A stretch of 64,000 bases of DNA. Source: Verrucomicrobiia bacterium. Lineage in GTDB: Bacteria > Verrucomicrobiota > Verrucomicrobiia > Limisphaerales > UBA1100. Position 1 is the stretch's first letter, and each line of letters begins with the position of its first letter. The notes below the pieces were generated by a model. The model saw only the letters and a list, made by a program, of their open reading frames with translations, was not told the DNA's origin and made no database searches. A program made the translations under genes and the position numbers. The DNA is taken from positions 10,669 through 74,668 of the forward strand of contig JAAZZB010000033.1 of the NCBI GenBank assembly GCA_014239365.1, given 5' to 3'. Shown piece after piece: positions 11,549 through 38,962 of the stretch.

Positions 11549-11723
11549 AGCGCGGAAGGTAACAGGGCGGGGCGGGGGGTTCAAGCGGTTCGAGTGAGTG
11601 GGATGGGTTGGGAACAAATCGGGCTTTTCATTTTGGGGCGGCGTGCTACAAACCGCGCGTCCGCCAAGGGCGGACACAACCCACGGGGTGCAAACCATTT
11701 TCCTCATTGCCGACGCGGCATCA

Positions 11724-12089
11724 GTGCCGACGCCGTATGCCCAGTATTTGTTGCTGGGCGTAATGGCGGTGATGGCGGTGGGCTTCGCGTGCGGGCCGCT
11801 GATCCTTTCGGCCATTCTTGCGCCGCGCAAACCGAACGATATCAAGCAATCCACTTTCGAGTGCGGGCTGGAATCGAAGGGCGATCCGTGGGTGCAGTTT
11901 AACGTGCAATACTATTTGTACGCGCTGGCGTTTGTGATTTTTGATATTGAGGCGGTGTTCATTTATCCGTGGGCGGTGGCGTTTACGGATCTGTCGTTCG
12001 GGGCATTTCTGGCGATGGGCATTTTCATTTTGCTGCTGGCGGAGAGTTTGATTTATTTGTGGATTAAAGGTGTGCTGACGTGGAAATAA
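11724..12089 (+). CDS. nuoA: NADH-quinone oxidoreductase subunit A
   Basis: [40 protein letters not shown] is the NuoA/ND3 signature. The start is uncertain; the GTG at 11724 gives about 121 aa. Confidence 0.85.
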
Positions 12090-12093
12090 AACG

Positions 12094-12759
12094 ATGACGA
12101 CCGAAAATATCAATGCCGGGATGGACCTCGACGACACCACGCGCTCGGAGCTGGAGCGGGCGGGGGTGATCGTGTCGAAGGTGGATTTCCTCTACAACTG
12201 GGCGCGCGGCGGGTCGGTGTGGCCGCTGACGTTTGGGCTGGCGTGCTGCGCGATCGAGATGATTGCCTCGGCCACATCGCGTTTTGACATCTCGCGGTTT
12301 GGTTCGGAGGTGTTTCGTCCCACGCCGCGTCAGGCGGATTTGATGATTGTCTCCGGCACGGTCACCAAAAAAATGGCGCCGCAAGTCGTGCGGATTTATA
12401 ATCAAATGCCCGAGCCGAAATGGGTGATCGCGATGGGCGCGTGCGCGATTTCCGGCGGGCCATTCAAGCAGGGCTACAACGTGCTGAAAGGCATCGATCG
12501 TTATATTCCGGTGGACGTTTATTTGCCGGGTTGCCCGCCACGGCCGGAGGCGGTTTTGCAGTCGCTCAATTATTTGCAGGAAAAAATTCGCAAGACAAAA
12601 ATCGAGGATGACCCCGCCTTCACCGAGGGTCGCCGTCAATATCCTGTGCCGCGTTTTACAGGCACGGATTTGGAGCCGCCGTTTAATCCGGAAGTATGGT
12701 CGCCGCCGGAAAATCCAAATGCACCGGATGCACCGGAGGAGAAAGAAGCCACCGCATGA
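12094..12759 (+). CDS. nuoB: NADH-quinone oxidoreductase subunit B
   Basis: [14 protein letters not shown] and [10 protein letters not shown]...LPGCPPRPE supply the cluster N2 cysteine ligands. Confidence 0.95.
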
Positions 12760-13319
12760 GCGAACTTTCGCATGAATCATTGCTGAAAGAATTTCCCGAG
12801 GCGCAATGGGATGAAGCTGCGGGCGCGGTGATTTTGCCTGCCACAAATGCGCGCACCATCGCCGAGTGGTTGCTCGCCAGTGGCTGGGATTATTGCAGCA
12901 ACGTCACCGGCGTGGATTATCTTGAGCGCGAGGTGAAAGAAAAAATCACCAACGACGCCGGCGAAACTGAAACCGTGACACGCACCGAGCCCGGCCGCAT
13001 TGATGTGGTTTATCATCTTTATTCCATCGCAAACAAAACCGGTCCGTTGGTCATCAAGCAACGCACCGGCCGCGAAGGTGCGACGGCGGAATCGCTCACG
13101 CCGGTTTGGCGCAGTTGCGATTTGCAGGAGCGCGAGGTGTACGATTTGTTCGGCGTGAATTTCAAAGGTCATCCGGATCAACGCCGCATTTTGATGTGGG
13201 ACGAATTTGAAGGCCACCCGATGCGGCGCGATTACACCGAGCCTTTCGATTACGAATGGGAGCCGACGCCGCACGCCGAAATTTTGGAGAAACACCAACG
13301 GGGGAAGGTCATCATTTGA
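12756..13319 (+). CDS. nuoC: NADH-quinone oxidoreductase subunit C
   Basis: The ATG at 12756 overlaps the nuoB stop (ATGA). ERE(V/A)YDLFGV and [22 protein letters not shown] are NuoC/30-kDa-subunit motifs. Confidence 0.9.
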
Positions 13320-14467
13320 GCACCACCGCCGCGCCCAATTACGAGTTGTTGCAGCAGGAAGGTTTGGAAACCAGTCTGCTGGAAATCTCGATGGGGCCGC
13401 ATCATCCGAGCACGCACGGGGTGTTTCGGATGGACGTGAAGCTCGACGGCGAAACGGTGGTGGAACTGAAGCCGGTGTTCGGCTACCTCCATCGCAATCA
13501 CGAAAAGCTCGCGGAAAATATGAGCTACCTTTCGAGCATGCCCTTCACCGATCGGCTCGATTATTTTAATAGCATGACCAACAACTGGGCGTACGCGTTG
13601 GCGGCGGAACAGTTGGTGGAAGTCGAAGTGCCCGAACGCGCGGAATATCTGCGCGTGATTATGGCCGAGCTCACGCGCTTGGTGAATCACGTGACGCTCG
13701 TTGGTTTTTTTGTGAACGACCTCGGCGCACTGGGTACGCCGTTGATGTACGCCTTCCGCGAGCGCGAAAAAATTCTCGATCTCTTCGAGCAAGCCAGCGG
13801 CGCGCGAATGATGTGCAACTACTTCCGCTTTGGCGGTCTCCGCAATGATGTGCCCGAAGGTTGGCTCGATCGCACGCGGGAATTGGTCGATCGCTTCCCC
13901 GCTTTTCTTGATGAGTACGAACAGCTCCTTAGCGAAAACGAAATCATCCTCAGTCGCACGCAGGGCGTGGGGAATTTGTCGCGCGAACTCGCCATCAACG
14001 CCGGCATCACCGGCCCCATGCTCCGCGCCAGCGGCGTGAATTATGACCTCCGCAAAGTGGATGCCTACGGCATTTACGATCGCTTCAAATTTCGCGTGCC
14101 CTACACCGACGGCGACACCGGCGATTGCTACGATCGTTTTATGATTCGAATGCTCGAGATGCGCGAGAGCGTCGCGATTTTGAAACAAGCCCTCGCCGAC
14201 ATTCCCGAAGGCGACATCATCGGCAAAGTCTCCAAAGTGTTTAAGCCCAAACCCGGCGAAACCTATGGCCGCATCGAAGGGCCCAAAGGCGAGCTCGGCT
14301 TTTACCTAATCGCCGACGGTACCCCAAAACCTTACCGCTACCGCGTGCGGCCGCCGTCGCTCATCAATCTCACGGTGCTGCGTGAGATGTGTCTCGGCGG
14401 CAAAATTGCTGACGCCGTCGTCATTCTCGGCAGCATCGACATCGTGCTCGGGGAGGTGGATCGATGA
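13316..14467 (+). CDS. nuoD: NADH-quinone oxidoreductase subunit D
   Basis: [24 protein letters not shown] and the C-terminal VLGEVDR are NuoD/49-kDa signatures. The probable TTG start at 13316 overlaps the nuoC stop, but it is uncertain. Confidence 0.92.
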
Positions 14468-15159
14468 GCATTCTCGGCGGAGGAATTTTCAAAGGAATGG
14501 CGGTAACGCTGCGAAATTTTGTGGGCTCTTATTTTTATAAGGAACGCCTCATCACCAATGATTACGATTGGCGTCCCGAGGATAAATTACCTCAAAGCAT
14601 CGGCGAATATCCAAAGGAAGAAGGCGAGCAACTGCGCGACACCACCACCGTCAATCATTACAGCCGCAACTTCCCGATGCTGCTGCACGATGGCGGCGAG
14701 CCGATGGATACCGTGCGCTGCGTGGCTTGCCAAATCTGCGAGCGCGAGTGTCCGCCGCAATGCATTTACATCGAGAAGAGCGAAGACAAAACGGAGCGGT
14801 CCGACAACAAGGCGCAGTTTTATCCCGCCAAGTTTGACATCGATGTTTCCGTTTGTATGAGCTGCCAGATTTGCGTGGAGGTTTGCCCGTTCGACGCCAT
14901 CGTGATGAACAGCCAGTTTGAGCTAAGCACGCCCGATCGCTTTGGCGGGTTGCTTGTGCGCCGCGATGACTTGCTGAAGAGCAACGATTACTATCACAAA
15001 ATTCACCCGCAAGAAGCCGCCACGCGCGACCAAAAAATGGTCGCCGACAAAGCCGCCAAAGAAGCCAAGAAAAAAGCCGCCGCCGAAAAAGCTAAAGCGG
15101 CTGCGGAAGTCAAGGCGAAGGCCGCCGCCGAAGCAAAAGCCAAGGAGGAAGGCGAATGA
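14464..15159 (+). CDS. nuoI: NADH-quinone oxidoreductase subunit I, with an internal insertion and a Lys/Ala-rich C-terminal tail
   Basis: Two 4Fe-4S motifs, [12 protein letters not shown] and [12 protein letters not shown]. The tail is [36 protein letters not shown]. It sits upstream of nuoH, which is not the canonical order. Confidence 0.9.
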
Positions 15160-16505
15160 GTTTCCAGCTCATCATCGACATCCTCATTGCCACCGTGCCG
15201 TTGCTGGTGATTTTCCCGTCGCTCTTTGCCTTCACCACGTGGATGGAACGCAAAGCCCTCGCGCGCATTCAAAACCGCATCGGCCCCAACAAAATCGGCG
15301 TGCCCTGCACACGCGTCTCCCTCTTTGGCCTCGGCCAACCCGCAGCCGACGGCATCAAAATGATTTTCAAGGAAGACATCGTGCCGCGCGGTGCAGACAA
15401 ATTATTTCATTTGCTCGCACCCATCCTCGCGCTTATTCCCGCGATGCTCATTCTTTGTTTTCTGCCGCTCGAATTTCCGTGGGGGAAATTTATGTCCGGC
15501 AAAGTGCAGGCGTTTATGCTCGATAGCGCGGTCATCTTTTTCTTCGCCATCACCGGCCTCAACACGCTCGCCATCTTCATGGCCGGCTGGGCGTCGCGCA
15601 ATAAGTACTCGCTCCTCGGCGGGATGCGTGCCGTGGCGCAAATGGTCAGCTACGAAATCCCGCTCGTATTGTCCGCCGTCATCGTGGTGATGATGGTCGG
15701 CAGCCTCAACGCCAAGGAAATCGCTGACGCACAATCGGGTTTCAATTGGTTTGTGTTCAGCCCGTGGGGGCTCGCCGCGTTCATTGTTTTCTTCATCGCC
15801 GCGCTGGCCGAAACCAATCGCTCGCCCTTCGATCTGCCCGAAGCCGAAAGCGAAATCATCGCCGGCTATTTCACCGAATACAGCGGCTTCAAATTCGCGC
15901 TCTTTTTCCTTGGCGAATACATTGCGATGTTTGCCATCAGCGGCTTGGCGGTCACACTTTTCCTCGGTGCCGGCGATGGCCCGTTTGTGGATGCCGCTCC
16001 GTGGATGCCGGCGATGTGGTTTATTGCAAAAATCTTTGGGCTCATCGCCGTGATGATTTGGCTACGCGGCACGTTGCCGCGCCTTCGCGTAGATCAACTG
16101 ATGGCCTTCGCCTGGAAATTTCTGCTGCCGCTTTCTATTTTCAATATCCTCCTCGCCGGGCTGTCGTACTTCGCGCTGGATGCCCGCGTGGCAAACACTA
16201 CCGATGATGTCATCCACTACGTTAATTCGGGGAATCCCTTCGCCGGCGTGCCCGAGCTTGGCACTAATGAAGCGTTGATGGGCGCGATGATTTATCGGGG
16301 AATGGCGGGAGAACAAAATCCGATGGCGGCAAAAAAATGGTTTCTCAAAGCTGCGCTCAAAGGCCATCCAGCTTCGCGAACGCTCGTCGCGTGGTGGCTC
16401 GGCATTTGGGTGCTGAGCCTCGTGGCACTTTATGTGATGGCGAAGGGACTAAATAACCTCAGTCGCTCGACCACCAAACCGCGCGAATATTTATACGCTG
16501 AATGA
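15156..16505 (+). CDS. nuoH: NADH-quinone oxidoreductase subunit H with a C-terminal extension of about 108 aa (Sel1-like repeat plus an extra TM helix)
   Basis: It carries the NuoH/ND1 motifs ERKALARIQNRIGPN, GWASRNKYSLLGGMRAVAQMVSYEI, AETNRSPFDLPEAESE and RVDQLM. The canonical part ends near residue 341. Residues 342-449 contain LMGAMIYRGMAGEQNPMAAKKWFLKAALKGHPAS and the hydrophobic LVAWWLGIWVLSLVALYVMA. Confidence 0.92.
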   Translation: MSFQLIIDILIATVPLLVIFPSLFAFTTWMERKALARIQNRIGPNKIGVPCTRVSLFGLGQPAADGIKMIFKEDIVPRGADKLFHLLAPILALIPAMLILCFLPLEFPWGKFMSGKVQAFMLDSAVIFFFAITGLNTLAIFMAGWASRNKYSLLGGMRAVAQMVSYEIPLVLSAVIVVMMVGSLNAKEIADAQSGFNWFVFSPWGLAAFIVFFIAALAETNRSPFDLPEAESEIIAGYFTEYSGFKFALFFLGEYIAMFAISGLAVTLFLGAGDGPFVDAAPWMPAMWFIAKIFGLIAVMIWLRGTLPRLRVDQLMAFAWKFLLPLSIFNILLAGLSYFALDARVANTTDDVIHYVNSGNPFAGVPELGTNEALMGAMIYRGMAGEQNPMAAKKWFLKAALKGHPASRTLVAWWLGIWVLSLVALYVMAKGLNNLSRSTTKPREYLYAE

Positions 16506-17023
16506 CGCAGGAAATTACATTTTGGGTGTTGGCGGTCATCGCAGTGCTCGGTGCGTTGGTGGCGGTGCGGCGGCGTAATCTCATTCACGGCGTGTTCGCG
16601 CTGATGATTTTCTTCGCGGCATTGGCGGGGCTCTTCCTGCTGTTGATGGCGGAGTTCATCGCCGCGGTGCAAATTCTCGTTTACATCGGCGCGGTGGGCA
16701 TTTTGTTGTTGTTTGCCATTATGCTCACCGAACGCGTCACGGGCGACGACGCGCGCGACATCACTTCACGCGGCAGCTTCTGGGGTTGGGCAGCCGCGCT
16801 GGCGGTGTTGGTGTTCCTTTTATTGCCCGCCATTCAAGGCGCGGATTTATCGCAAACCGCCCAACCCATTAACCCATCGGTCAAAGCGCTCGGCCACCAA
16901 ATGATGGATCCGTATGTTGTCACACTTGAAGTGTTGGCGCTATTGCTCACCGCCGCGCTGATCGGAGCGGTCGCCGCTTCGCAAGGCGGCGAAAAAAAGA
17001 AGGAGGATACTGATGACGCTTGA
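16502..17023 (+). CDS. nuoJ: NADH-quinone oxidoreductase subunit J
   Basis: ATGA overlap with nuoH. The sequence LIHGVFALMIFFAALAGLFLLLMAEFIAAVQILVYIGAVGILLLFAIML is NuoJ/ND6-like. Confidence 0.9.
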   Translation: MTQEITFWVLAVIAVLGALVAVRRRNLIHGVFALMIFFAALAGLFLLLMAEFIAAVQILVYIGAVGILLLFAIMLTERVTGDDARDITSRGSFWGWAAALAVLVFLLLPAIQGADLSQTAQPINPSVKALGHQMMDPYVVTLEVLALLLTAALIGAVAASQGGEKKKEDTDDA

Positions 17024-17324
17024 GCATTGTCTCATCCTCGGCGCGGTGTTGTTTTGCATCGGCTTGCTCGGCGCACTCACGCGACGCAACGCGGTGGTGG
17101 TGCTCTTCTCAATCGAAATTATGCTCAACGCCGCCAACCTGAATTTCATCGCCTTCTGGCGATTCAGCCCCAATCCCGCTGAACTGCACGGCCCGCTGTT
17201 TACTCTTTTTACCATCGCCGTTGCCGCCGCCGAAGTCGCCGTGGGCCTCGCGTTGGTGATCGCCGTTTACCGCCATTTCAAAACCGTGGACCTCGAACAA
17301 CTCGATACCCTAAAAGAAGAGTGA
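17013..17324 (+). CDS. nuoK: NADH-quinone oxidoreductase subunit K
   Basis: 103 aa. LLGALTRRNAVVVLFSIEIMLNAANLNFIAF and AAAEVAVGLALV are NuoK/ND4L motifs. Confidence 0.92.
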   Translation: MTLEHCLILGAVLFCIGLLGALTRRNAVVVLFSIEIMLNAANLNFIAFWRFSPNPAELHGPLFTLFTIAVAAAEVAVGLALVIAVYRHFKTVDLEQLDTLKEE

Positions 17325-17372
17325 CCGGCAATTTGACAATATTTTTTGAAACGAACGGAGTGGCGCACCCAA

Positions 17373-17436
17373 GTGCTGCCGGCATCTTGCCGGCAGAAGT
17401 TGCGCTTCCGACCTGCCGGCAAGATGCCGGCAGCAC
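17373..17436. repeat. R4: palindromic repeat GTGCTGCCGGCATCTTGCCGGCAG...CTGCCGGCAAGATGCCGGCAGCAC, inside the nuo operon between nuoK and nuoL
   Basis: The two 24-nt arms are reverse complements. A second copy at 51705-51767 overlaps the lipA 3' end. Confidence 0.8.
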
Positions 17437-17442
17437 AATTAA

Positions 17443-19350
17443 ATGACCCTAGAAACGCTAGCCTTAATTCCGTTGTTGCCGTTGGTGGCGGCCGCCATCA
17501 CGAGTGGCGTGCAGTGCGGACGTCGCTCGGCGGGCATCGCCATCGCGGCGATGCTCGGCTCGTGCGTGCTCGCGCTGATGGCGTGCAGCGAGTCGTGGGG
17601 AATGGCGGCGGACACGCACAAAACGTTCGACATCGAATGGCTTACCGTTGGCGGCACCGCGATCAATTTTGGTTTTGTGCTCGATCCCCTCACCGGCGCG
17701 ATGGCCGCAATGGTCACGTTCGTCGGCTTGCTCATTTTCATTTTCTCCTTCGGCTATATGAAGGACGACAAACGGATGGCGCGATTCTTCTGTTACCTTT
17801 CACTGTTCGCCGCCGGAATGCTCGGCCTTGTGTTGGCCAACAGTTTGTTGCTCCTGTTTATGTGCTGGGAAATTGTCGGCGTGGCGTCGTATTTGCTCAT
17901 CAGTTTTTGGAATCATAAACCCGAAGCAGCCGCTGCCGGCAAAAAAGCATTCATCGTCACGCGCATTGGCGATATGGGATTTCTCATCGGCATTTTGTTG
18001 GCCTTCAAATCCACCGGCACATTGATGCTTTATGATGGCGGCGCGGGCCTGTTGGAAACCGGAATGGCCGGCACGGTGTTGGGCTTCAAAACCGCAGCCG
18101 TGGTGAGCTTGCTTTTGTTCTGCGGCGCGGCGGGCAAGTCCGGCCAATTGCCGCTGCACGTGTGGCTGCCGGACGCGATGGAAGGCCCCACGCCCGTGAG
18201 CGCGCTCATCCACGCGGCCACGATGGTGGCGGCGGGCGTGTTCCTCGTGGCGCGCGCGATGCCGATGTTCGTCGATGGCGGCACGCTGCCGGTGGTGGCG
18301 TGGGTGGGCGCGCTCACCGCGTTGGTGGCCGCGTTCATTGCGCTTGGGCAATACGACATCAAACGCATTCTTGCCTACTCCACCGTGAGCCAGCTCGGGC
18401 TGATGATGGTGGGGCTCGGCGTGGGCGGCGTGGCGATTGGGATGTTCCATTTGCTGACGCACGCGTTTTTCAAGGCACTACTTTTTATTGGCGCGGGCAG
18501 TATCATCCACGGTTGCCACGAGGAACAGGACATCCGCAAAATGGGCGGCGTGTGGAAATCGATGCGCATCACCTCCATCGCTTATTTGTGCGGCACGGCG
18601 GCGCTCGTGGCGTTTCCATTTACGAGCGGATTTTTCAGCAAAGACGAAATCCTCGCGGGCGCGTGGGCGGCCCATCGCCCCATCTTTTGGATCGCCGCTT
18701 TCGCCTCACTGCTCACGGCAATTTATATGACCCGCCAATGTTTGTACGTCTTCACCGGCGCGCATCGCGGCGAACACGAGCCACACGAAAGCCCGAAAGT
18801 AATGACCGTGCCGCTCGTCATCCTCGCCGTGGCGGCGCTGGGATTGGGCGCGGTGGCGCGCGAAACCATTTTTGCAAAACTGCCGGGCTCGGCGTTCCCG
18901 CACGAAACCATCGTCATCGTCGTGAGCATCGCCGTGGCGCTCGGCGGCATCCTGATTGGCTGGCTGGTGTACGGCGGGCGCGAGTTGGGCGAAGCACCTG
19001 ATCCGCTGGCGGTTGCGCCGTTGCGCGAGAAGCTTTGGTTCGATGAATTGTACGCCGCCACCGTCGGCCGTCTTTGGAATTTGATGGCCATCATTTGGGA
19101 GCAACTCAACGAGCTGTTGCTCTTCGTGCGCGATATGGCGGTGGCGTTGGCGCGCGCGCTTAGCAGTGCGGTGGCCATTGGCGGTGATCGCCGGTTCATC
19201 GACACGTTTGCCTTTGATGGCTTGTGCGAAAAACTCCGCGACAGCAGTTGGGCGGTCACGCGGCCGCAAAATGGATTTTTGCCAAGCTACCTTCGGCTCA
19301 TCGCATTCGGCGCAGTGGCGCTCGGGTTGCTCTTGTTTTGGATGATATGA
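17443..19350 (+). CDS. nuoL: NADH-quinone oxidoreductase subunit L
   Basis: 635 aa of ND5-type antiporter-like sequence (GKSGQLPLHVWLPDAMEGPTPVSALIHAATMVAAGVFL). A long C-terminal amphipathic segment follows the WFDELY motif. Confidence 0.93.
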   Translation: MTLETLALIPLLPLVAAAITSGVQCGRRSAGIAIAAMLGSCVLALMACSESWGMAADTHKTFDIEWLTVGGTAINFGFVLDPLTGAMAAMVTFVGLLIFIFSFGYMKDDKRMARFFCYLSLFAAGMLGLVLANSLLLLFMCWEIVGVASYLLISFWNHKPEAAAAGKKAFIVTRIGDMGFLIGILLAFKSTGTLMLYDGGAGLLETGMAGTVLGFKTAAVVSLLLFCGAAGKSGQLPLHVWLPDAMEGPTPVSALIHAATMVAAGVFLVARAMPMFVDGGTLPVVAWVGALTALVAAFIALGQYDIKRILAYSTVSQLGLMMVGLGVGGVAIGMFHLLTHAFFKALLFIGAGSIIHGCHEEQDIRKMGGVWKSMRITSIAYLCGTAALVAFPFTSGFFSKDEILAGAWAAHRPIFWIAAFASLLTAIYMTRQCLYVFTGAHRGEHEPHESPKVMTVPLVILAVAALGLGAVARETIFAKLPGSAFPHETIVIVVSIAVALGGILIGWLVYGGRELGEAPDPLAVAPLREKLWFDELYAATVGRLWNLMAIIWEQLNELLLFVRDMAVALARALSSAVAIGGDRRFIDTFAFDGLCEKLRDSSWAVTRPQNGFLPSYLRLIAFGAVALGLLLFWMI

Positions 19351-20786
19351 CTACCGCACTCACATTAGCACCGGTGCTGGCGGCGATTTTAATAATGGCC
19401 CTGCCGGAAGCACGCGCGCGAATGGTCGCGCTCGGCGGCGCGTTGGTGTCGTTGGCGCTGACGGTGTGTATGCTCACGCGGTTTGATCTCGCGGAAACCG
19501 GCATTCAGTTTCAGGAAAAATTTAATTGGATTCCCGCGCTCGGCATTGATTATTTCGTCGGCCTCGATGGCTTGAATGCGCTCGTGCTGTTGCTCGCCGC
19601 GGTGCTCGCGCCGTTGGTGGTGTTGGCTTCGTGGAATCATACCGATCGACCGCGCACGTATTTCGTGCTGATATGTCTGCAACTCACCGGGCTCTTCGGC
19701 ACGTTCACGGCGCTCAACTTTTTCCATTGGTTCCTCTACTGGGAACTGGCTTTGGTTCCGGCATTTTTCCTCATCAAACTTTTTGGCAAAGGCGAGAAAC
19801 GCCATCGCGCGGCGCTGAACTTTTTTCTGTTCACCGTGGTCGGCAGCGTGGCGATGCTGCTCGGCTTCCTGTTTCTGTTTCAGAAAACGGGCACGTTTGA
19901 TTTTATCACGCTGTCGAAAATGGGCGTCGATGTCAGCCCGTGGATTTTCTGCGCAGTGCTCGCGGGCTTGTGGGTGAAGGTGCCGATGGCGCCGCTGCAC
20001 ATTTGGCAGGCCCCCGCGTATGCCGCCGCGCCCGCGCCGGTGGCGATGCTGCTCACGGGCGTGATGAGTAAAATGGGCGTGTACGGTTTCCTGCGATTGG
20101 TGGTGCCGATTTTTCCAGACCATTTGAAGCACTACGCCACGGCGTTGATGGCCTTCGCGTTGGTGACCATTTTGTGGGGCGCATTCCTCGCGCTACGGCA
20201 AACGGATCTCAAGCGGATGCTGGCGTTTTCCTCGTTGAACCACGTGGCCTTTTGCGTGCTCGCCGTGGGCGCGTTGGGGCTGGTGGCGGATGGTGCCAAA
20301 ATCGATGTGCGCGCGCTGGCCACGCAGGGAATTATTTTGCAAATGTTCGCGCACGGCATTGCAGCGGCGGGATTATTTTATCTCGTGGGGTTACTGGAGG
20401 AACGCGGCGGCACGCGCGGCTTGGGCGACTTCGGCGGGCTCAGCTCGGTGACGCCCCGACTTGCGGCGGCGTTTTTCATGCTCACATTCTGTTCGCTCGG
20501 CCTGCCATTTATGGCGGGATTTGCGGCGGAGTTTTTGATTTTCAGTAGCAGCTTCGCCGTGGCGCCGGGCATCACGGCGGTGGCCACGCTGGGGCTTTTG
20601 GCGACGGCGGTGTTTTTGCTGACGATGCTGCAAAAAGTATTCACCGGCCCCACGCCCGAACGGCATCGCGCAATGCCGGATTTGTCTTTGATGGAAACGC
20701 TGATTTTAATTCCGCTGCTCATCCTAGTTTTTTGGGCCGGCATGGCACCGGCCACTTGGTTGCGGTTTAGCGAAATGCTTTTTTAA
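19347..20786 (+). CDS. nuoM: NADH-quinone oxidoreductase subunit M (copy 1)
   Basis: The ATG at 19347 overlaps the nuoL stop. ND4-type motifs are GLDGLNALVLLL, WELALVPAFFLIKLFGKGEKRHRAALNFFLFTVVGSVAMLLG and KVPMAPLHIWQAPAY. Confidence 0.9.
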   Translation: MTTALTLAPVLAAILIMALPEARARMVALGGALVSLALTVCMLTRFDLAETGIQFQEKFNWIPALGIDYFVGLDGLNALVLLLAAVLAPLVVLASWNHTDRPRTYFVLICLQLTGLFGTFTALNFFHWFLYWELALVPAFFLIKLFGKGEKRHRAALNFFLFTVVGSVAMLLGFLFLFQKTGTFDFITLSKMGVDVSPWIFCAVLAGLWVKVPMAPLHIWQAPAYAAAPAPVAMLLTGVMSKMGVYGFLRLVVPIFPDHLKHYATALMAFALVTILWGAFLALRQTDLKRMLAFSSLNHVAFCVLAVGALGLVADGAKIDVRALATQGIILQMFAHGIAAAGLFYLVGLLEERGGTRGLGDFGGLSSVTPRLAAAFFMLTFCSLGLPFMAGFAAEFLIFSSSFAVAPGITAVATLGLLATAVFLLTMLQKVFTGPTPERHRAMPDLSLMETLILIPLLILVFWAGMAPATWLRFSEMLF

Positions 20787-20787
20787 T

Positions 20788-22272
20788 ATGATAGCCCTGC
20801 TCACAGTCATTTTCAGCTTTGTCGGCGCGCTGGTTTGCGGGTTGATGCCGGCGCGTTGGCATCGGGCCATTCGTTGGGTGGCGCTGTCGACAGCGGGGCT
20901 GGGGTTTGCGGCGGCCTTCTGCTGCGCCCTGCGCTACACGGGGCCGGGGATGGAGGATATCATCAGCCGGACTTGGATTCCTTCGATGGGGGTTGGCTTT
21001 ATCACCGGCTTCGATGGGATCAGTTTGCCGTTGCTGTTGGTGACGGGATTGGTGGCGGTGGCGGGTGTGTTGTTCACGTGGAATCTCGATCATCGGGCGG
21101 ATCAATTTTATGCCTTTTACTTCGCGTTGATTGGCGGGGTTTACGGCGTGTTTTTGTCGATGGATTTATTTTTGCTGTTTGTGTTTTATGAAATCGCGAT
21201 TGTGCCAAAATATTTTCTGATCGCAATCTGGGGTGGCGCGAAGCGCGAGTATGCGGCGATGAAACTGGTGATGTATTCCTTCGGCGGCAGCGCGTTGGTG
21301 TTGATCGGAATGCTGGCGCTGTTCTTTGCTTCGGGGCTGAACACTTTCGATTTGCGCGCGCTGATGGAAGTGGATTTTTCCAGCGGATTGCAGGCGGTAG
21401 TGTTTCCGGTGATGTTCGTGGGCTTCGCGATCTTGGCCGGTATGTGGCCGTTCCACACGTGGGCGCCGCAAGGCCACTCGGCTGCGCCCACAGCGGCGAG
21501 TATGCTGCTGGCGGGCGTGGTGATGAAGCTCGGCGCGTACGGTTGCCTGCGCGTGGCGGTGGGCTTGATGCCCGAAGGCGCGATGGTTTGGGCGCCGTGG
21601 GTGGCGGTGTTCGCAGTGATCAACATAATTTACGGAGCGCTGGCGGCGTTGCGACAGGAGGATTTCAAATACGTGATCGGCTATTCCAGCGTGAGCCATA
21701 TGGGCTTTGTGTTGCTCGGCATCGGCACGTTGCATCTCACGGGAATGACGGGCGCGGTGTTGCAAATGTTTTCGCACGGCGTCATCGGCGCGCTGCTCTT
21801 CGCAATGGTGGGCACGGTGATTTACACGCGCACCAAAACGCGGATGCTCGACGAACTGCATCGGTTGATGGAACGGATGCCGGGCATCGCGTGGGTGTTC
21901 ATCGTAGTGGCACTCGCATCGATGGGCTTGCCGGGGTTCAGCGGGTTTGTGTATGAGCTGTACGTGATCCTCGGCGCGTGGGCGGCATTGCCAACTTGGA
22001 TCGTCATCGGCGCGGGCCTCGGGGTGTTTGCAACCTTCGGCTACACGCTGGCAAAAATTCACGAAGCATTTTTCCGCGAGCGGAGCACTGGCGACGATGC
22101 CAGCGATAACAACAACGGAGAAAGCGATGCCGATTATCCGCCAATGACTTTGCCTGAAAAAGCGGGGGTGGCGTTGTTGCTGGGCGCGTCGTTGGTCATC
22201 GGGCTTTGCCCGTGGCTGTTGACCAATCACATCGCCGGTAGCCTGCAACTTTTGCTGAACCGATTTAATTAA
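20788..22272 (+). CDS. Second NuoM-like antiporter subunit (copy 2)
   Basis: 494 aa starting 1 nt after the nuoM stop. ND4-type motifs are GFDGISLPLLLVT, FYEIAIVPKYFLIAIWGGAKREYAAMKLVMYSFGGSALVLIG and WPFHTWAPQGHSAAPTAASMLLAGVVMKLG. It is clearly M-type rather than N- or L-type. Confidence 0.88.
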   Translation: MIALLTVIFSFVGALVCGLMPARWHRAIRWVALSTAGLGFAAAFCCALRYTGPGMEDIISRTWIPSMGVGFITGFDGISLPLLLVTGLVAVAGVLFTWNLDHRADQFYAFYFALIGGVYGVFLSMDLFLLFVFYEIAIVPKYFLIAIWGGAKREYAAMKLVMYSFGGSALVLIGMLALFFASGLNTFDLRALMEVDFSSGLQAVVFPVMFVGFAILAGMWPFHTWAPQGHSAAPTAASMLLAGVVMKLGAYGCLRVAVGLMPEGAMVWAPWVAVFAVINIIYGALAALRQEDFKYVIGYSSVSHMGFVLLGIGTLHLTGMTGAVLQMFSHGVIGALLFAMVGTVIYTRTKTRMLDELHRLMERMPGIAWVFIVVALASMGLPGFSGFVYELYVILGAWAALPTWIVIGAGLGVFATFGYTLAKIHEAFFRERSTGDDASDNNNGESDADYPPMTLPEKAGVALLLGASLVIGLCPWLLTNHIAGSLQLLLNRFN

Positions 22273-22273
22273 A

Positions 22274-23764
22274 ATGGATTACTCCGCAATATTCACCGCG
22301 CTGTTGCCCGACCTATTTGTGGTGGTGGCATTGTTCGCGGCGCTGGGGGTGGACTACACCAAACTGCGCAGCGCGTCATTGGCCGACCGCGCGTGCGCCG
22401 CCTCACGCATTTGCGGCGTGGGGCTAGTGGGCGCATTGGTGGCATTAGCATTTCAGTTGACCGGCAGCCTCGCAGTGGACGGCCACGCGCTGGAAGTGAC
22501 CACGCACGGGCAATTGGTTTTGAACGCCGGCACGTTGGCGCTAAAGGCGCTGTTGTTTTTGCTGGGACTATTGGTGCTGCCGCTGGCGGCGCGAACAATT
22601 TCCACACCGCAAGTGAGCGAATATTTCGCGTTGTTGTTGCTGGCTACTTTGGGGATGGGTTTTATGGTGACGAGCCGCAACCTGCTCGGGGCATTCGTGG
22701 CGTTGGAGTTGGTGAGCTTGAGCCTGTACGCGCTTACGGCGCTGAATTCTGCGCAAAAGGGGTCGGCCAAATCCGCTGAAGCCGCACTTAAATATTTTAC
22801 TTATGGCGGCGTGGCGTCAGCGTTTCTTTTATTTGGCATCAGTTATTTATTTGGCGCATTGGGGCAACTGGATATTACGCAAGCCACACTGGCCGAGGCA
22901 CCGCGATTAGTGGTGGTGGCGTATTTATTTATTTTGGTGGGGCTTGGCTTCAAGCTCGCGCTCGCGCCATTTCATTTGTGGGCGCCGGATGTGTACCAAG
23001 CCGCGCCCACGCCCGCAGCGGCGTGGATTGCCAGCGGCTCAAAAATCGCCGGCGTGGCGTTGTTGCTTGCCTTGCTCGGGCCGGTTTCATTGCCCTCGGC
23101 GCATTCGGCGATCGTGCCGTTGTTGTTATTAATGGCCGTGGCCAGCATGGCGGTGGGCAACCTCGGCGCGTTGCGGCAATCCAATGTCAAACGCCTCCTC
23201 GCCTACAGCGCCATTGCCAATGCCGGATATATTTTGGTGGCCGTCGTGGCCTTCACCGATGACGGCCGTGCGGCGGCACTATTTTATGCGATCGTGTACG
23301 CCGTGGCCACGCTGGGCGCGTTCGCGGTGGTGAGTGTGTGGAACGACCGACTCGGGCGCGAAGCGCTCATCGATGATTTTCGCGGGGCGTGGAAAGCCAG
23401 CCCCGGCCTTTCGCTGGCGTTATTGGTATTTGTGCTGTCGCTCGCGGGCATTCCCCCGCTCGCGGGATTTGTTGGGAAATTTTATTTATTCTTCGCCGCC
23501 ATTCACGCCGCGCCACAAATGGAATATTGGAGTGACGGATTATATTGGCTCGTGGCCGTGGCCCTCGTCTTCAGCGTGGTGGCACTTTATTATTACCTAA
23601 AAATCCTAAAAGCCGTCTTCGTGCGCGAGGAAACCGGTGAGATGGACAACACGCCGGTAGGCTTGCCCGCCTCCGTCGCCATCCTCGTGCTTGCACTGCT
23701 GACGGTAGCACTCGGCGTCTGGCCCGAGCCGGTGGTGGAATATATTCGGTTGTATTTGTTTTAG
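22274..23764 (+). CDS. nuoN: NADH-quinone oxidoreductase subunit N
   Basis: ND2-type motifs are LELVSLSLYALTA, AALKYFTYGGVASAFLLFGISYLFG and LAPFHLWAPDVYQAAPTPAAAWI. The last base of the stop codon is the first base of repeat R1. Confidence 0.9.
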   Translation: MDYSAIFTALLPDLFVVVALFAALGVDYTKLRSASLADRACAASRICGVGLVGALVALAFQLTGSLAVDGHALEVTTHGQLVLNAGTLALKALLFLLGLLVLPLAARTISTPQVSEYFALLLLATLGMGFMVTSRNLLGAFVALELVSLSLYALTALNSAQKGSAKSAEAALKYFTYGGVASAFLLFGISYLFGALGQLDITQATLAEAPRLVVVAYLFILVGLGFKLALAPFHLWAPDVYQAAPTPAAAWIASGSKIAGVALLLALLGPVSLPSAHSAIVPLLLLMAVASMAVGNLGALRQSNVKRLLAYSAIANAGYILVAVVAFTDDGRAAALFYAIVYAVATLGAFAVVSVWNDRLGREALIDDFRGAWKASPGLSLALLVFVLSLAGIPPLAGFVGKFYLFFAAIHAAPQMEYWSDGLYWLVAVALVFSVVALYYYLKILKAVFVREETGEMDNTPVGLPASVAILVLALLTVALGVWPEPVVEYIRLYLF

Positions 23765-23996: not shown

Positions 23997-25247
23997 ATGA
24001 AGCCTGCCCACGGCCTGTTATTGACGATTGGATTTGCAGTGGGCACGGGGTTTTCGTATTGGATGCTTGCGGGTTCGGTGACACCGAATCGTTCGATTTC
24101 AGATGGGCCGGATGCGGAGGAAACTATTTCTTTAGTGGAACATCGTTCAGAGCTTCAAGCTGCGCGGGCGCGGGCTAATCGGGTGGAGGTGATCGAAACC
24201 AAAATTTTTGAATCGGTGAATGTGGGTCGATCGCCAGAAGAATTAATTGAAAATCTCAAAACGGTGGAGGCGAACAGCCCGGAATTTATTCAGCGCCGGT
24301 CAGTGCATTATTTGGAAAGCCTGGTGGATTTGGGGCCCAAGTCGGTGGGGCCGATTGGCACGTTTTTGGCAGAACGAGTGGACCGTGAATATCTGACCAC
24401 GCGTCAATCGCTTACCTTGAATGGGCGCCCTGTCAGTGCCGCCGAACAAGTTCGGCGGGCGATCAGTAATCCTTTGCCCAAGCCCAATTTGAATTTCGTT
24501 AGCCCGCCTTCATTGCGGTTGGGTTGTTTCACGGTGCTACTGCAAATCGGCGGGCCGGAAGCGGAAAAGGTGTTATTGGATGTATTGAAAAAAACCGCCA
24601 GCGGCGCGGAGGTTGCGTGGTTGGATGAGATTTTGGATCGACTCAATCCCGGCACGCACCGGGACAAAGTGCTGGAAGCCGCGCGCGCGGTGCTCAAGCT
24701 TGGAAGAGCCACGGATGAGACCAGCCTATTGGATCGGCAATCCAAACGCTATTTGCTTGCCGTGTTGATCCGGCATCGCGATCTGAGCGTGCTCACCCAT
24801 TTTCTGGCAAACCTCGTGGATGCCGAAGGCCGGTTGGATCCGTTGGCGTTCCGTTATCTGCTCGACTCCCAAGTCACGGGAGGCTTGGACACTCTGCGGG
24901 AAGTGTATCGCACGCGTATGACCGATGCCGACGAACGCCGCATAGTTCGCAGCCGACTCTTGCGTTACGTGGGCACGGAACCGGGAATGGACACCTTCTA
25001 CAAAGAGACTTTCCAAGCCGCAATAGCCGGACGCGATGGGATGACCTCGCGCGATGTGAGCACCGCCCTGTTAAGCCTCAGCTTTAGCCCCATCCCCGGC
25101 CAGCGATTATCTAACAATCCAGCCTTGATTCGCAACCGCCTCCATATAATAGATGGGTTGAAACGAATGATCAGTGATCCTCAATTGCAAAAACGAATCC
25201 ACTCCACCGAACGTACCCTGAACCGGATGCTTGAACCCAATCCATAG
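23997..25247 (+). CDS. Full-length member of the recurrent membrane-anchored family (island copy)
   Basis: An N-terminal TM, then HRSELQAARARA, RRSVHYLESLVDLGPKSVGPIGTFLAERVDREY and PPSLRLGCFTVLLQIGGPEAEKVLLDVLKKT. It is collinear with the 57484..58845 product. Confidence 0.75.
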   Translation: MKPAHGLLLTIGFAVGTGFSYWMLAGSVTPNRSISDGPDAEETISLVEHRSELQAARARANRVEVIETKIFESVNVGRSPEELIENLKTVEANSPEFIQRRSVHYLESLVDLGPKSVGPIGTFLAERVDREYLTTRQSLTLNGRPVSAAEQVRRAISNPLPKPNLNFVSPPSLRLGCFTVLLQIGGPEAEKVLLDVLKKTASGAEVAWLDEILDRLNPGTHRDKVLEAARAVLKLGRATDETSLLDRQSKRYLLAVLIRHRDLSVLTHFLANLVDAEGRLDPLAFRYLLDSQVTGGLDTLREVYRTRMTDADERRIVRSRLLRYVGTEPGMDTFYKETFQAAIAGRDGMTSRDVSTALLSLSFSPIPGQRLSNNPALIRNRLHIIDGLKRMISDPQLQKRIHSTERTLNRMLEPNP

Positions 25248-25253
25248 TACATA

Positions 25254-26549
25254 ATGAAACCAAAACAAACACTCCTGAAACTTCTTCTCTTTATCCTGTT
25301 GGCTTTCCCCTCGTTGAGTTGGGCGGCGCATCAGACTGGGTCGGATCAGATGACGCTAGAATCCATCCACGGCTACTGGGCTGCGCAGGGTTCAGCGCCT
25401 GAGGACGGGGAAGTGCGATTTTCTGAGGGGAGCGCGTTCCCCGATTTCAGTGATCCGGATTGGGTTGGGCTGGATTATCCCAATTATCTGGATTGGGTTT
25501 ACGCCACGTATACTCAGGAGGGCGCAACGCTGATCGACATCACCCTTGGGTGTTGGATGAGCCAGGACTGGGAAGAATCCTATCCGAGCTACGCCGAATA
25601 TCTGGCGGCTTGCGATGAAAATGGCCGAAGAGAAACGATGCGTGAAGCGACGGCGGTTTATTTAGACAACACGACATCCGAGTACTACATAAACCAAGCA
25701 GTTGGGCAAACATTCAACCTCATTCACAATGGCGAACTGGCCACCGAACGCGAAGCCGCCGAAATCGCCGGAGCGGCTGAGGAGGGTGGCAGGGGTGGGT
25801 TGCATATTTATGTCAACGAACTTTCCTTTGGCGGGACGGATGCGCTGGGGTGGACGCAGTCCGGCGAATATCAAGGCGCAGATTTTCAAAGTGCTCAATG
25901 GGTCTCAGTGCTTACCCGTGAAGGATTGATTATGGTGGCCACCGCTGGCACCGGCACGGCGGCCTCTGCAGGATCCCGTGCAGCGTTGTACGCCAACCAA
26001 ACTCTGCTGGGATTGGATGCCTTCCGCACGGGGCAAGGGTTGGGAGATGGCCTCAACGAAATGATCGAAACAGGAGGACGATCGGGCGCGGGTACGGTGT
26101 TACTGAGTGCACTAGGAATGAGAAGGCTCCGAATGAATACTAGCTCCGCAGGAGGAACAACATTCAATAGTGCTTTGCGGGGCAACACTCGCAGATCATC
26201 AGAATTCACTACTTGGAATCAGTTTCAGGCGGGAACGAAGGGGCAATTTGCATCGAGGGGTGAAGCTGGGACAGCTTGGTCGATATACAAAAGAGCAAAC
26301 GGAATTATTACAGGAACTGTCCGCAGCTCTGCTGCAAAAAGCCAGTTTCTTCGAGAGTTGGGCAATACTGGCCAAGTGCCGAAATGGATGAATCAGTGGC
26401 TGTCAAAGGGTAAAGTCCCTCCCGGTTACCACGTTGACCACATAAAACCATTATCAACGGGAGGGCTAGACTTGCCAGCAAATATGAGGCTACAAAATAT
26501 CGATTTACATAAAACGCACCATAAATATTATCGCCCATGGGAGAAGTAA
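25254..26549 (+). CDS. Signal-peptide-bearing protein with a C-terminal HNH (beta-beta-alpha-Me) nuclease motif; candidate secreted toxin
   Basis: Signal peptide MKPKQTLLKLLLFILLAFPSLSWA. The last 45 aa or so read PPGYHVDHIKPLSTGGLDLPANMRLQNIDLHKTHH (DH...N...H pattern). A Gly/Ala/Thr-rich linker separates it from an N-terminal region with no domain I recognise. Confidence 0.65.
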   Translation: MKPKQTLLKLLLFILLAFPSLSWAAHQTGSDQMTLESIHGYWAAQGSAPEDGEVRFSEGSAFPDFSDPDWVGLDYPNYLDWVYATYTQEGATLIDITLGCWMSQDWEESYPSYAEYLAACDENGRRETMREATAVYLDNTTSEYYINQAVGQTFNLIHNGELATEREAAEIAGAAEEGGRGGLHIYVNELSFGGTDALGWTQSGEYQGADFQSAQWVSVLTREGLIMVATAGTGTAASAGSRAALYANQTLLGLDAFRTGQGLGDGLNEMIETGGRSGAGTVLLSALGMRRLRMNTSSAGGTTFNSALRGNTRRSSEFTTWNQFQAGTKGQFASRGEAGTAWSIYKRANGIITGTVRSSAAKSQFLRELGNTGQVPKWMNQWLSKGKVPPGYHVDHIKPLSTGGLDLPANMRLQNIDLHKTHHKYYRPWEK

Positions 26550-26550
26550 A

Positions 26551-26910
26551 ATGACAAAAAAAATGCTGGTAAAATATGATCCGGCGAATCCGGAAAAGTC
26601 ATCGTCTGAATTTTTATTCCCAAATCGCAATTCGGGCACGATTGCGCTGTGCAGCATTAAGAACAATGCCCCCTCGGAATTCGGATTGGTGGTTTATACT
26701 GGCAGGGATTTGTCCTCTGCCGATTTGTTTGCAAGAATCATTGAAACTGGGCATGTGATTAAATCTGTTGAACAAATGATGTGTGATCTTAAAATATTTT
26801 TGATAGAAATAAAAAATCAGAAAATCGGAAACGTGGTTGCACTCGATCAGGTGGCCATCAAAGGTGATGCCCTTCGACTACGGAGCGCAAACCTAAGGGC
26901 ATATAAGTAA
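26551..26910 (+). CDS. Small cytoplasmic protein; candidate cognate immunity protein
   Basis: 119 aa with no signal peptide. It starts 1 nt after the stop of the HNH gene (taaaATG). AT-rich, with no recognisable family. Confidence 0.45.
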   Translation: MTKKMLVKYDPANPEKSSSEFLFPNRNSGTIALCSIKNNAPSEFGLVVYTGRDLSSADLFARIIETGHVIKSVEQMMCDLKIFLIEIKNQKIGNVVALDQVAIKGDALRLRSANLRAYK

Positions 26911-26954
26911 GGGGTAAGGATCTCCTCAAATAATTAGCAAATATTTTATCACAA

Positions 26955-27422
26955 ATGACACCAATTAAATACCTGTTGACTTCCGTTGCGTTTGCATTCG
27001 TGCCGTTATATTATACTGCTGCAACTAAAGGTGAAGCAATAGATGCGCAGGTCAAGCGGCGGCAGGCTATTGAGCAATTCCAAGAGGCAGTCAATGTGAT
27101 GACTGCGGGTTTCGATACGGATGGGGATGGCCGGGTCACGCGCAAAGATGCAGACGTGAACGGTTTTCTAAGGAAGGTGGCCGCACTGCCTAATTTTGAT
27201 TGGGCTTATCCCATTACCATTGACGAGGAACTGGCAACTCTTTGGAAGAAAACCGGCCGAAAAAACAAATACCTGAAAATTATTCCCCGTGCTGAATCTG
27301 GGGGGTTTGTCGGGGGCTCGTTTAATTCACAGAGATATTATCGACCGTATAGTATTGTGCTGACAAATGAGTTGGTTAAAGTGAAAGTTGAAAAGAAAGA
27401 GTGGGAATACAAGAGTGAATAA
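26955..27422 (+). CDS. Small exported or membrane-anchored hypothetical protein with an EF-hand-like DxDxDG loop
   Basis: An N-terminal hydrophobic segment LLTSVAFAFVPLYY and the motif FDTDGDGRVTRKD. AT-rich coding region. Confidence 0.45.
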   Translation: MTPIKYLLTSVAFAFVPLYYTAATKGEAIDAQVKRRQAIEQFQEAVNVMTAGFDTDGDGRVTRKDADVNGFLRKVAALPNFDWAYPITIDEELATLWKKTGRKNKYLKIIPRAESGGFVGGSFNSQRYYRPYSIVLTNELVKVKVEKKEWEYKSE

Positions 27423-38185: not shown

Positions 38186-38962
38186 ATGTTAGCCAAACGC
38201 GTCATTCCCTGCCTCGATGTTCACGACGGACAAGTCACCCGTGGCGTGCAATTTGGCAAAGCCGAGGCGGGCGAGCTGCGCAACGTGGGCGATCCCGTCG
38301 AGCTCGCGCTGGAGTATAATAATCAGGGCGCGGACGAGATGGTGTTCTTCGACATCACCGCCAGCGCGCACGAACGCAAGACCATCGTGGACGTCATTGA
38401 GCGCGCGGGCGATCAATGCTTTATGCCACTCACCGTCGGCGGCGGCATCCGCACCGTGGAAGACATGAGCACGATGCTCAAAGCCGGCGCCGACAAAGTG
38501 AGCATCAACTCCGCCGCCATCGCCACGCCATCGCTCATCCGCGAAGGCGCGGAAAAATTCGGCAGCCAATGCATCGTCGTCAGCATCGACGCCAAAAAAA
38601 CCGGCGACGACCAATGGCGCGTCTTCACCCACGGCGGCCGCAAGGAAGCCGGGTTGGACGCCGTCAAATGGGCGCGCGAAGCCGTGGCGCTCGGCGCGGG
38701 CGAAATTGTTTTGAACAGCATCGACGCCGACGGCACCAAAGCCGGCTACGACATCGAGATCACCCGACGCATCAGCGAAACCGTCGGCGTCCCCATCGTC
38801 GCCAGCGGCGGCGCGGGCAATCTCGACCACATGGTGGATGTCCTAAAACAAGGCCAAGCCGACGCCGTCCTCGCCGCCAGCATATTCCACTTCGGCGAAT
38901 ACACCGTCGGCGAAGTGAAAACGCATTTAGCCAAGGCGGATATTCCGGTGCGGGTGGTTTGA
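38186..38962 (+). CDS. hisF: Imidazole glycerol phosphate synthase, cyclase subunit
   Basis: [30 protein letters not shown] and ASGGAG are all HisF motifs. Confidence 0.95.

Follow-up and report, generated by a model that had tools for sequence, protein, structure and literature searches.

Within the 64,000-nucleotide stretch of DNA analysed here (the window, from contig JAAZZB010000033.1 of a Verrucomicrobiia bacterium), the nuoH gene of a complex I operon runs on in frame for 108 residues after the canonical NuoH sequence has ended. The extended gene is genuine and not an artefact of assembly. We consider it likely that its product is the NuoH of a second complex I, one that lacks NuoEFG, and that the extension combines an old element, a ninth transmembrane (TM) helix (TM9) followed by a short C-terminal tail, with a young one, a Sel1-like insert predicted to lie in the periplasm. 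The 108 amino acids thus form two layers: TM9 plus tail, and a net insertion of 64 amino acids in the loop between TM8 and TM9. The parts of the gene are as follows.

15156..16505, + strand: nuoH open reading frame (ORF) of 449 aa and a stop, beginning with ATG and uninterrupted, coupled through ATGA to nuoI and nuoJ (Pfam, NCBIfam)
15156..16181, + strand: canonical NuoH core, residues 1-342, eight TM helices (Pfam, Kyte-Doolittle hydrophobic segments, structural alignment)
16182..16262, + strand: residues 343-369, the TM8 helix predicted to continue to ~357 beyond the membrane, then a linker (AlphaFold2 (AF2) model; alignment of six inserts)
16263..16367, + strand: residues 370-404, a single Sel1-like helix-turn-helix with helix A at 370-381, a loop, and helix B at 389-401 (Pfam, profile, AF2, Foldseek)
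16368..16463, + strand: residues 405-436, predicted TM9 (Kyte-Doolittle segment 407-433; AF2; alignment to 8e9g_H; kept in short-form relatives)
16464..16502, + strand: residues 437-449, predicted cytoplasmic C-terminal tail ending KPREYLYAE ([PK]RxYx[YL]A[DE] motif)

The extended reading frame and its operon

The canonical part of the protein is delimited by several independent measures. The Pfam NADHdh model (PF00146) spans residues 14-334 (E 4.9e-110; 368 bits against a cut-off of 27), and the NCBIfam NuoH models span residues 10-337 (NF004741 scoring 321 bits against a cut-off of 305). None of the 28 PDB sequence matches at E<=1e-40 extends past query residue 337, and structural alignments of the AF2 model to solved NuoH, ND1 and NdhA chains finish at ~343, with one exception (8e9g_H). 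Because these Pfam, NCBIfam, PDB and structural limits agree, and because the frame is a single ORF, the boundary near residue 341 and the 108 additional in-frame residues reported in the original prediction, which had been made from the sequence alone, are correct. The eight-helix fold superposes on solved chains, 264 of them at Z>=8; all of the matches listed are NuoH, ND1 or NdhA chains, with Z of 37.7-41.6 over model residues 1-343. The quinone-site loops are conserved: P224, D226 and G237 are invariant across 126 NuoH sequences, and E229, E231 and E233 nearly so.

The start codon of nuoH overlaps the stop of nuoI as ATGA, and its own stop codon overlaps the start of nuoJ in the same manner; the extended frame is therefore built into the translational coupling of the operon. 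The genome is a metagenome-assembled genome (MAG), and divergence among its relatives is mosaic in this region, so that a missed stop, a frameshift or a chimeric assembly fusing a separate small gene to nuoH had to be weighed. We give this explanation next to no credence. Contigs from two other runs cross the junction with 0 differences: X3, from another sample, is identical over 15955-16560, and X5, from another study, over 16144-16333. When 5.8 billion protein clusters were searched with the tail, seven more NuoH clusters, of 444-452 aa and drawn from NCBI, JGI and ENA assemblies, showed the identical full architecture; the only other protein of note was an unrelated Sel1 protein of 634 aa. 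In addition, TM9 and the tail are homologous to the C-terminus of shorter NuoH proteins in related genomes, and so the frame must continue; these insert-less relatives read through the canonical end into TM9 and tail, where a fusion artefact would have called for a stop codon.

The operon in which this gene lies belongs to a second complex I of a marine Verrucomicrobiota MAG, without NuoEFG and with two NuoM. Related records are labelled as MAGs of marine or aquatic Verrucomicrobiota, Verrucomicrobiae or Pedosphaera sp. The operon and the two genes that flank nuoH are placed as follows.

11598..23764, + strand: operon nuoA-B-C-D-I-H-J-K-L-M-M-N, without nuoEFG, with two NuoM
14464..15159, + strand: nuoI, upstream of nuoH (I-H order), with a Lys/Ala-rich C-terminal tail
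16502..17023, + strand: nuoJ, its start overlapping the stop of the extended nuoH

The two NuoM frames, at 19224-20786 and 20788-22272, match TIGR01972 at 413 and 428 bits, respectively (cut-off 263.8). The same genome carries a second, canonical operon on contig C60, encoding NuoE, F, G, H, I and J; its NuoH is of normal length, a 351-codon open frame that ends directly after TM8. The absence of the NADH-oxidising N-module, to which the original prediction had drawn attention, is thus true of the window operon and not of the organism, since NuoE, F and G are encoded on C60.

The ninth helix and the terminal motif

Kyte-Doolittle hydropathy resolved the eight canonical hydrophobic segments plus an extra one at 407-433, and AF2 placed a helix at 405-436; the additional TM helix that had been proposed from the sequence was in this way upheld. 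The loop between TM1 and TM2 is rich in K/R (nine such residues), and that between TM5 and TM6 is acidic (PFDLPEAESE); in solved complex I these are the cytoplasmic quinone-site loops. With eight helices in the core, such an orientation would place residues 343-406 in the periplasm and residues 434-449, with three K/R, in the cytoplasm, a topology predicted from hydropathy and from homology to solved NuoH. The AF2 model, computed from an alignment of 126 sequences, had a mean predicted local distance difference test score (pLDDT) of 90.1. Its helices within and after TM8 run over 312-357 (TM8, as one long helix), 370-381, 389-401 and 405-436 (TM9), followed by a coil tail; pLDDT was 67 in the linker block 361-370, 84-91 in the blocks of 371-400 and 87-95 in those of 401-440.

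To establish how widely the terminal part of the extension occurs, 80 loci were fetched from species-representative genomes using the C-terminal NuoH region, and their tails and gene orders were read. None of the 80 loci gave a match to NuoE, F or G. Of the 46 loci in which nuoI precedes nuoH (I-H order), 38 had TM9 and, near the C-terminus, RxYx[YLF]A; in seven the extension was degenerate or of another kind, and one locus was truncated by a contig end. Where nuoH precedes nuoI (H-I order), the motif was found in 0 of 25; 14 had no extension, eight had a TM9 ending GGGRVEV (or GGGRVAF) and three had something else. NuoI was not seen beside NuoH in the other nine loci, seven of which had the motif. 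Overall the motif was present in 45 of the 79 complete tails, within 0-3 residues of the C-terminus. The anchored consensus is [PK]-R-x-Y-x-[YL]-A; the next residue was E or D in 27 of the 45, and in seven the protein ended there. The motif-bearing extension measured 33-41 aa in 42 of the 45 loci, the exceptions being 59, 108 and 108 aa, of which the two of 108 aa are long forms like that of the window. Records bearing the motif are labelled as Verrucomicrobiota (several orders), Omnitrophota, Planctomycetales, Myxococcales and Deltaproteobacteria. A word-indexed search with residues 395-449 found only eight long-form clusters among 19 candidates; it missed the short forms, and is therefore uninformative on how widespread TM9 is.

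NuoH with TM9 and a [PK]RxYx[YL]A[DE] tail is a group defined in this analysis and not a curated family. The window protein has all of its features: an extra TM helix after TM8, the terminal motif, a nuoEFG-less operon and nuoI upstream of nuoH. It is most likely, by analogy with a mycobacterial NuoH discussed below, that TM9 and the tail act as a clamp or docking element on the cytoplasmic face. TM9 would return the chain from the periplasm to the cytoplasm, where the tail of 13-16 residues, ending [PK]-R-x-Y-x-[YL]-A-[DE], would dock at the junction of the membrane arm and the peripheral arm; once docked, it would help to hold the two arms together, as has been proposed for the mycobacterial extension.

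Other subunits also differed with gene order. More of the window subunits could be aligned in I-H than in H-I operons (loci L020-L099 against window 12094-15159): NuoB aligned to residue 209 as opposed to 171, NuoI to 192 as opposed to 159, and NuoC from residue 20 as opposed to 62. These additional stretches may be cytoplasmic extensions specific to the class, occurring together with the NuoH tail. Separately, the NuoH frames of three loci from Dehalococcoidia MAGs (L069, L099 and L083) extend over 1013, 1031 and 542 codons and contain C-terminal Cys motifs of the 4Fe-4S type, which suggests that they are NuoH-NuoI fusions.

The Sel1-like insert and its alleles

Sel1 repeats mediate protein interactions and, in Sel1 domains, form tandem arrays; many Sel1-like repeat (SLR) proteins are periplasmic or secreted. 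The Sel1-like match that had been recognised from the sequence of the extension stands in a reduced form: the insert is one Sel1-like hairpin and not a Sel1 domain, with support that is consistent but modest. When a profile of six inserts was searched against the PDB, all 11 matches at E<=10 were Sel1-type proteins (best 4bwr_A, 3.9e-8), among them C5321, HcpC, SEL1L and SLR proteins of Oxalobacter and Legionella. The isolated insert, folded alone, gave a pLDDT of 81.8, and the first ten rows of a Foldseek search with it (seven entries) were all Sel1-type proteins, at E 0.64-2.7. The residues invariant in all six long alleles (EA..GA, A, AALKGH and SR) fall on the structural consensus positions of the Sel1 repeat.

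Several observations weigh against this assignment. The Pfam Sel1 model (PF08238) matches residues 374-404, scoring 21.2 bits on the tail alone (E 4.4e-4), which is below the gathering cut-off of 30.7 bits; the long-form protein P0002 scored 23.2 bits, likewise below it, and five of the seven long forms scanned (P0003, P0004, P0005, P0007 and P0008) gave no Sel1 match at E<=10. The low whole-sequence E-values of the PDB profile search arise because they are summed over the many repeats of the targets; the best E-value for a single stretch was 0.045. Foldseek with the isolated insert gave nothing at E<=0.001. Residues 343-406 hold a single repeat unit, with one Pfam-matched stretch and no tandem array, and only nine of the 126 rows in the AF2 alignment carry the insert, so that model confidence there rests on few sequences.

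To follow the insert among relatives, 41 related genomes were searched with the 108-residue tail, and the frames were then read. The long form was found in four of the nine genomes of the genus, namely that of the window (G000), G004, G007 and G008, the whole tails of the latter three being 54-57% identical to that of the window. Four others (G001, G002, G005 and G006) have a short form, a 385-aa NuoH of which only the last ~35 residues match; in the ninth, G003, a genome 59% complete, no match to the NuoH tail was obtained. A match of the short type was also obtained in other genera of the family (G021, G011, G015 and G014) and in another family (G025). In short forms the canonical core, 91-95% identical to that of the window, is followed by a loop of about a dozen residues, then by a TM helix that leads into the tail KGLxNxSRSxxKPREYLYAE; long forms have a net 59-67 additional residues between TM8 and TM9 (net 64 in the window). 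In the other long alleles the insert is 38-48% identical to that of the window, as against 90-94% in the core. The extension, which had been described as one unit, is thus real and in frame as a whole, whereas its two layers differ in standing: TM9 and the tail are old and occur in several phyla, and only the Sel1-like piece is lineage-specific and dispensable in close relatives.

A tree of 4.7 kb of the operon (nuoD, nuoI, the nuoH core, nuoJ, nuoK and the 5' part of nuoL) paired each of the three long-form genomes in it with a short-form one: G000 with G006 (support 100/99), G007 with G005 (100/100) and G008 with G002 (93/97). It rejected a single long-form clade (p-AU, from the approximately unbiased test, 8e-17). 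This tree replaced one of the nuoH core alone, which was unresolved within the genus and did not reject such a clade (p-AU 0.208). In sliding windows along 14464-17274 (loci L020, L021, L024, L025 and L100), divergence was mosaic. Between G007 and G005, divergence was 0-3% in a stretch starting in nuoI and covering the first ~400 nt of nuoH, and 9-17% beyond it, the switch falling near window position 15500. G007 and G008 differed by 0-3% in the flanks of the insert (the 3' end of nuoH and into nuoJ), by 9-10% inside it and by 3-14% upstream. The mosaic and the tree suggest that nuoH 3' alleles have recombined among species, or that losses have occurred repeatedly. All of the genomes are MAGs, and chimeric contigs could mimic recombination; loss of the insert in near relatives is, moreover, equally compatible with a neutral insert.

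The ratio of nonsynonymous to synonymous divergence (dN/dS) was 0.13-0.44 in the insert, compared with 0.05-0.12 in the core, and fell below 1 in all six pairs; the insert is under purifying selection. In pairs involving G000, dS in the insert was 1.3-2.1 as against 0.45-0.51 in the core, and this excess over the flanks suggests old retained alleles; the dN/dS and dS values of the insert are calculated on only ~40 synonymous sites.

A serious rival, which we hold to be unlikely, is that the insert is functionless, an expansion that a permissive periplasmic loop has tolerated and that resembles a Sel1 hairpin by chance, only TM9 and the tail being of consequence. This would fit the three long/short sister pairs, in which the closest relative lacks the insert, as well as its much faster evolution relative to the core, the sub-threshold Pfam score and the presence of unrelated inserts in the same loop of other lineages (L022, L023 and P0044). 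It would also fit the lack of co-variation elsewhere, since no other Nuo subunit showed a length difference between long- and short-form operons. On the other hand, dN/dS values clearly below 1, the invariance of the Sel1 consensus positions, the confident predicted fold over residues 371-400 and the elevated synonymous divergence all argue against this reading. A more elaborate explanation, which seems to us less probable again, is that TM9 and the tail are an undescribed cross-phylum hallmark of I-H, nuoEFG-less complex I, accompanied by the class-specific extensions of NuoB, NuoI and NuoC, that may help on the cytoplasmic side to form a platform for an electron-donor module, and that the hairpin marks one of two old nuoH 3' allele classes kept in a marine Verrucomicrobia genus by recombination together with balancing or niche-specific selection; the hairpin would then bind a strain-specific periplasmic partner, or be itself a target.

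The original prediction had suggested that the Sel1 unit could be where an alternative partner for electron input or assembly docks, in view of the missing N-module. The lack of nuoEFG in the operon and the known role of Sel1 repeats in protein interaction lend themselves to this idea; we nonetheless regard it as very improbable. Electrons enter complex I at the cytoplasmic peripheral arm, and the insert, lying between TM8 and TM9, is predicted on the opposite side of the membrane, in the periplasm; an electron-input role is excluded by this topology, unless the predicted topology is wrong. The 108-aa extension was moreover seen in only two of the 45 motif-bearing loci, most nuoEFG-less I-H operons having no insert, sister genomes with the same operon lack it, and NuoEFG are encoded elsewhere in the genome.

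We therefore return to an old TM9 and tail that carry a young insert, in which a helical continuation of TM8 and a linker would be followed by one Sel1-like helix-turn-helix leading directly into TM9. The insert would be an accessory, dispensable allele that segregates and recombines among the species of one genus, and the hairpin most likely provides a small periplasmic protein-contact or stabilising element rather than a site of electron input, any periplasmic partner being postulated.

Two further observations concern the insert. Other long alleles (L002 and L003, both at ~1560-1620, L004, P0002 and P0004) have a His-rich linker before the hairpin, for example with 5 His in ~18 residues in the G007/G008 type, which may be a periplasmic metal-binding site; the linker of the window allele has one His only. 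In the window genome, the best match to the insert is a 205-aa Sel1 lipoprotein on contig C67 (L101 783-1400, - strand; 36% identity, E 0.002), which has a lipoprotein-type signal (…LAGTGC…) and Sel1 repeats. It was considered as a donor of the insert and rejected, the similarity being of the ordinary repeat level and giving no sign of a recent duplication. Genomes of the family contain many further Sel1-repeat proteins, of 200-860 aa.

Neighbouring genes, significance and known systems

Elsewhere in the operon, NuoL is 635 aa long, and NuoI ends in a Lys/Ala-rich low-complexity tail of 36 residues (~195-231, window ~15045-15156); tblastn alignments to relatives stop at ~192-195, and the tail is therefore variable. 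Directly 3' of nuoN lie four co-directional ORFs at 23997-27422 (416, 431, 119 and 155 aa), for which no Pfam or NCBIfam match was found. Outside both nuo operons, contig C9 of the same genome (G000) encodes a second Complex1_51K (NuoF-like) domain at 38265-38777 (L019), in a 709-codon frame.

Forms of complex I that lack the NADH-oxidising module are widespread among uncultured bacteria. One class of them can be followed from phylum to phylum by its ninth NuoH helix with a conserved C-terminal motif, a cheap sequence marker by which to recognise it; at the same time, TM9 and its tail are a concrete element on which arm-to-arm stabilisation or partner docking could be tested. The Sel1-like insert shows that a highly conserved core respiratory subunit can carry a dispensable hairpin of a protein-interaction type, predicted to be periplasmic and polymorphic among sister species. 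It also corrects an inference, as a hairpin so placed would lie across the membrane from the point where electrons enter.

A full-text literature search for NuoH together with Sel1 found no published precedent, the one paper returned being unrelated, in keeping with the initial impression that no Sel1 fusion to a core membrane subunit of complex I was known. For C-terminal extensions of NuoH, literature searches turned up structures from mycobacteria and E. coli only, and the passages of Spero et al. 2015 consulted contain nothing on NuoH extensions.

The nearest structural counterpart is the NuoH of M. smegmatis (8e9g chain H; PMC10068793), which likewise adds a ninth helix to the canonical eight, with a C-terminal stretch in the cytoplasm. 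Among the matches listed, 8e9g_H was the only chain aligned through the C-terminus of the model (model 3-449 to chain 11-387; Z 41.0, root-mean-square deviation 2.7, 370 residues). In the sections of PMC10068793 consulted, the authors propose that mycobacterial C-terminal extensions stabilise the connection. The comparison is tempered in that the two extensions share no detectable similarity in sequence: phmmer aligns 8e9g_H only up to query residue 336, and the likeness is structural only; according to the same sections, moreover, density for the M. smegmatis NuoH tail is weak. The mycobacterial enzyme also differs in being a canonical 14-subunit complex without a Sel1-like periplasmic insert, and it has a longer tail that, to judge from the sequence alignment, does not end in RxYxYA[DE].

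With the SLR proteins (E. coli C5321, 4bwr; H. pylori HcpC, 1ouv; SEL1L, 5b26; PF08238), the insert shares the helix A-loop-helix B arrangement and the A/G/L consensus, its helix B being AAKKWFLKAALKGH. Unlike them, it consists of one unit with a Pfam score below cut-off, and it sits between two TM helices of a respiratory subunit. The 385-aa short-allele NuoH of G006, G005, G001 and G002 has the same TM9, tail and operon without the net 64-aa insert.

At the level of the operon, the closest comparison is with '2M' complex I, described in the portions of PMC6606698 and PMC9040806 that we drew upon; like that type, the window operon encodes NuoM twice and lacks NuoE/F. As those portions of PMC6606698 present it, the 2M operon of Nitrospira clade 3 has no nuoH and an enlarged nuoG; in the window operon, by contrast with that account, nuoG is absent and nuoH is present, in its extended form.

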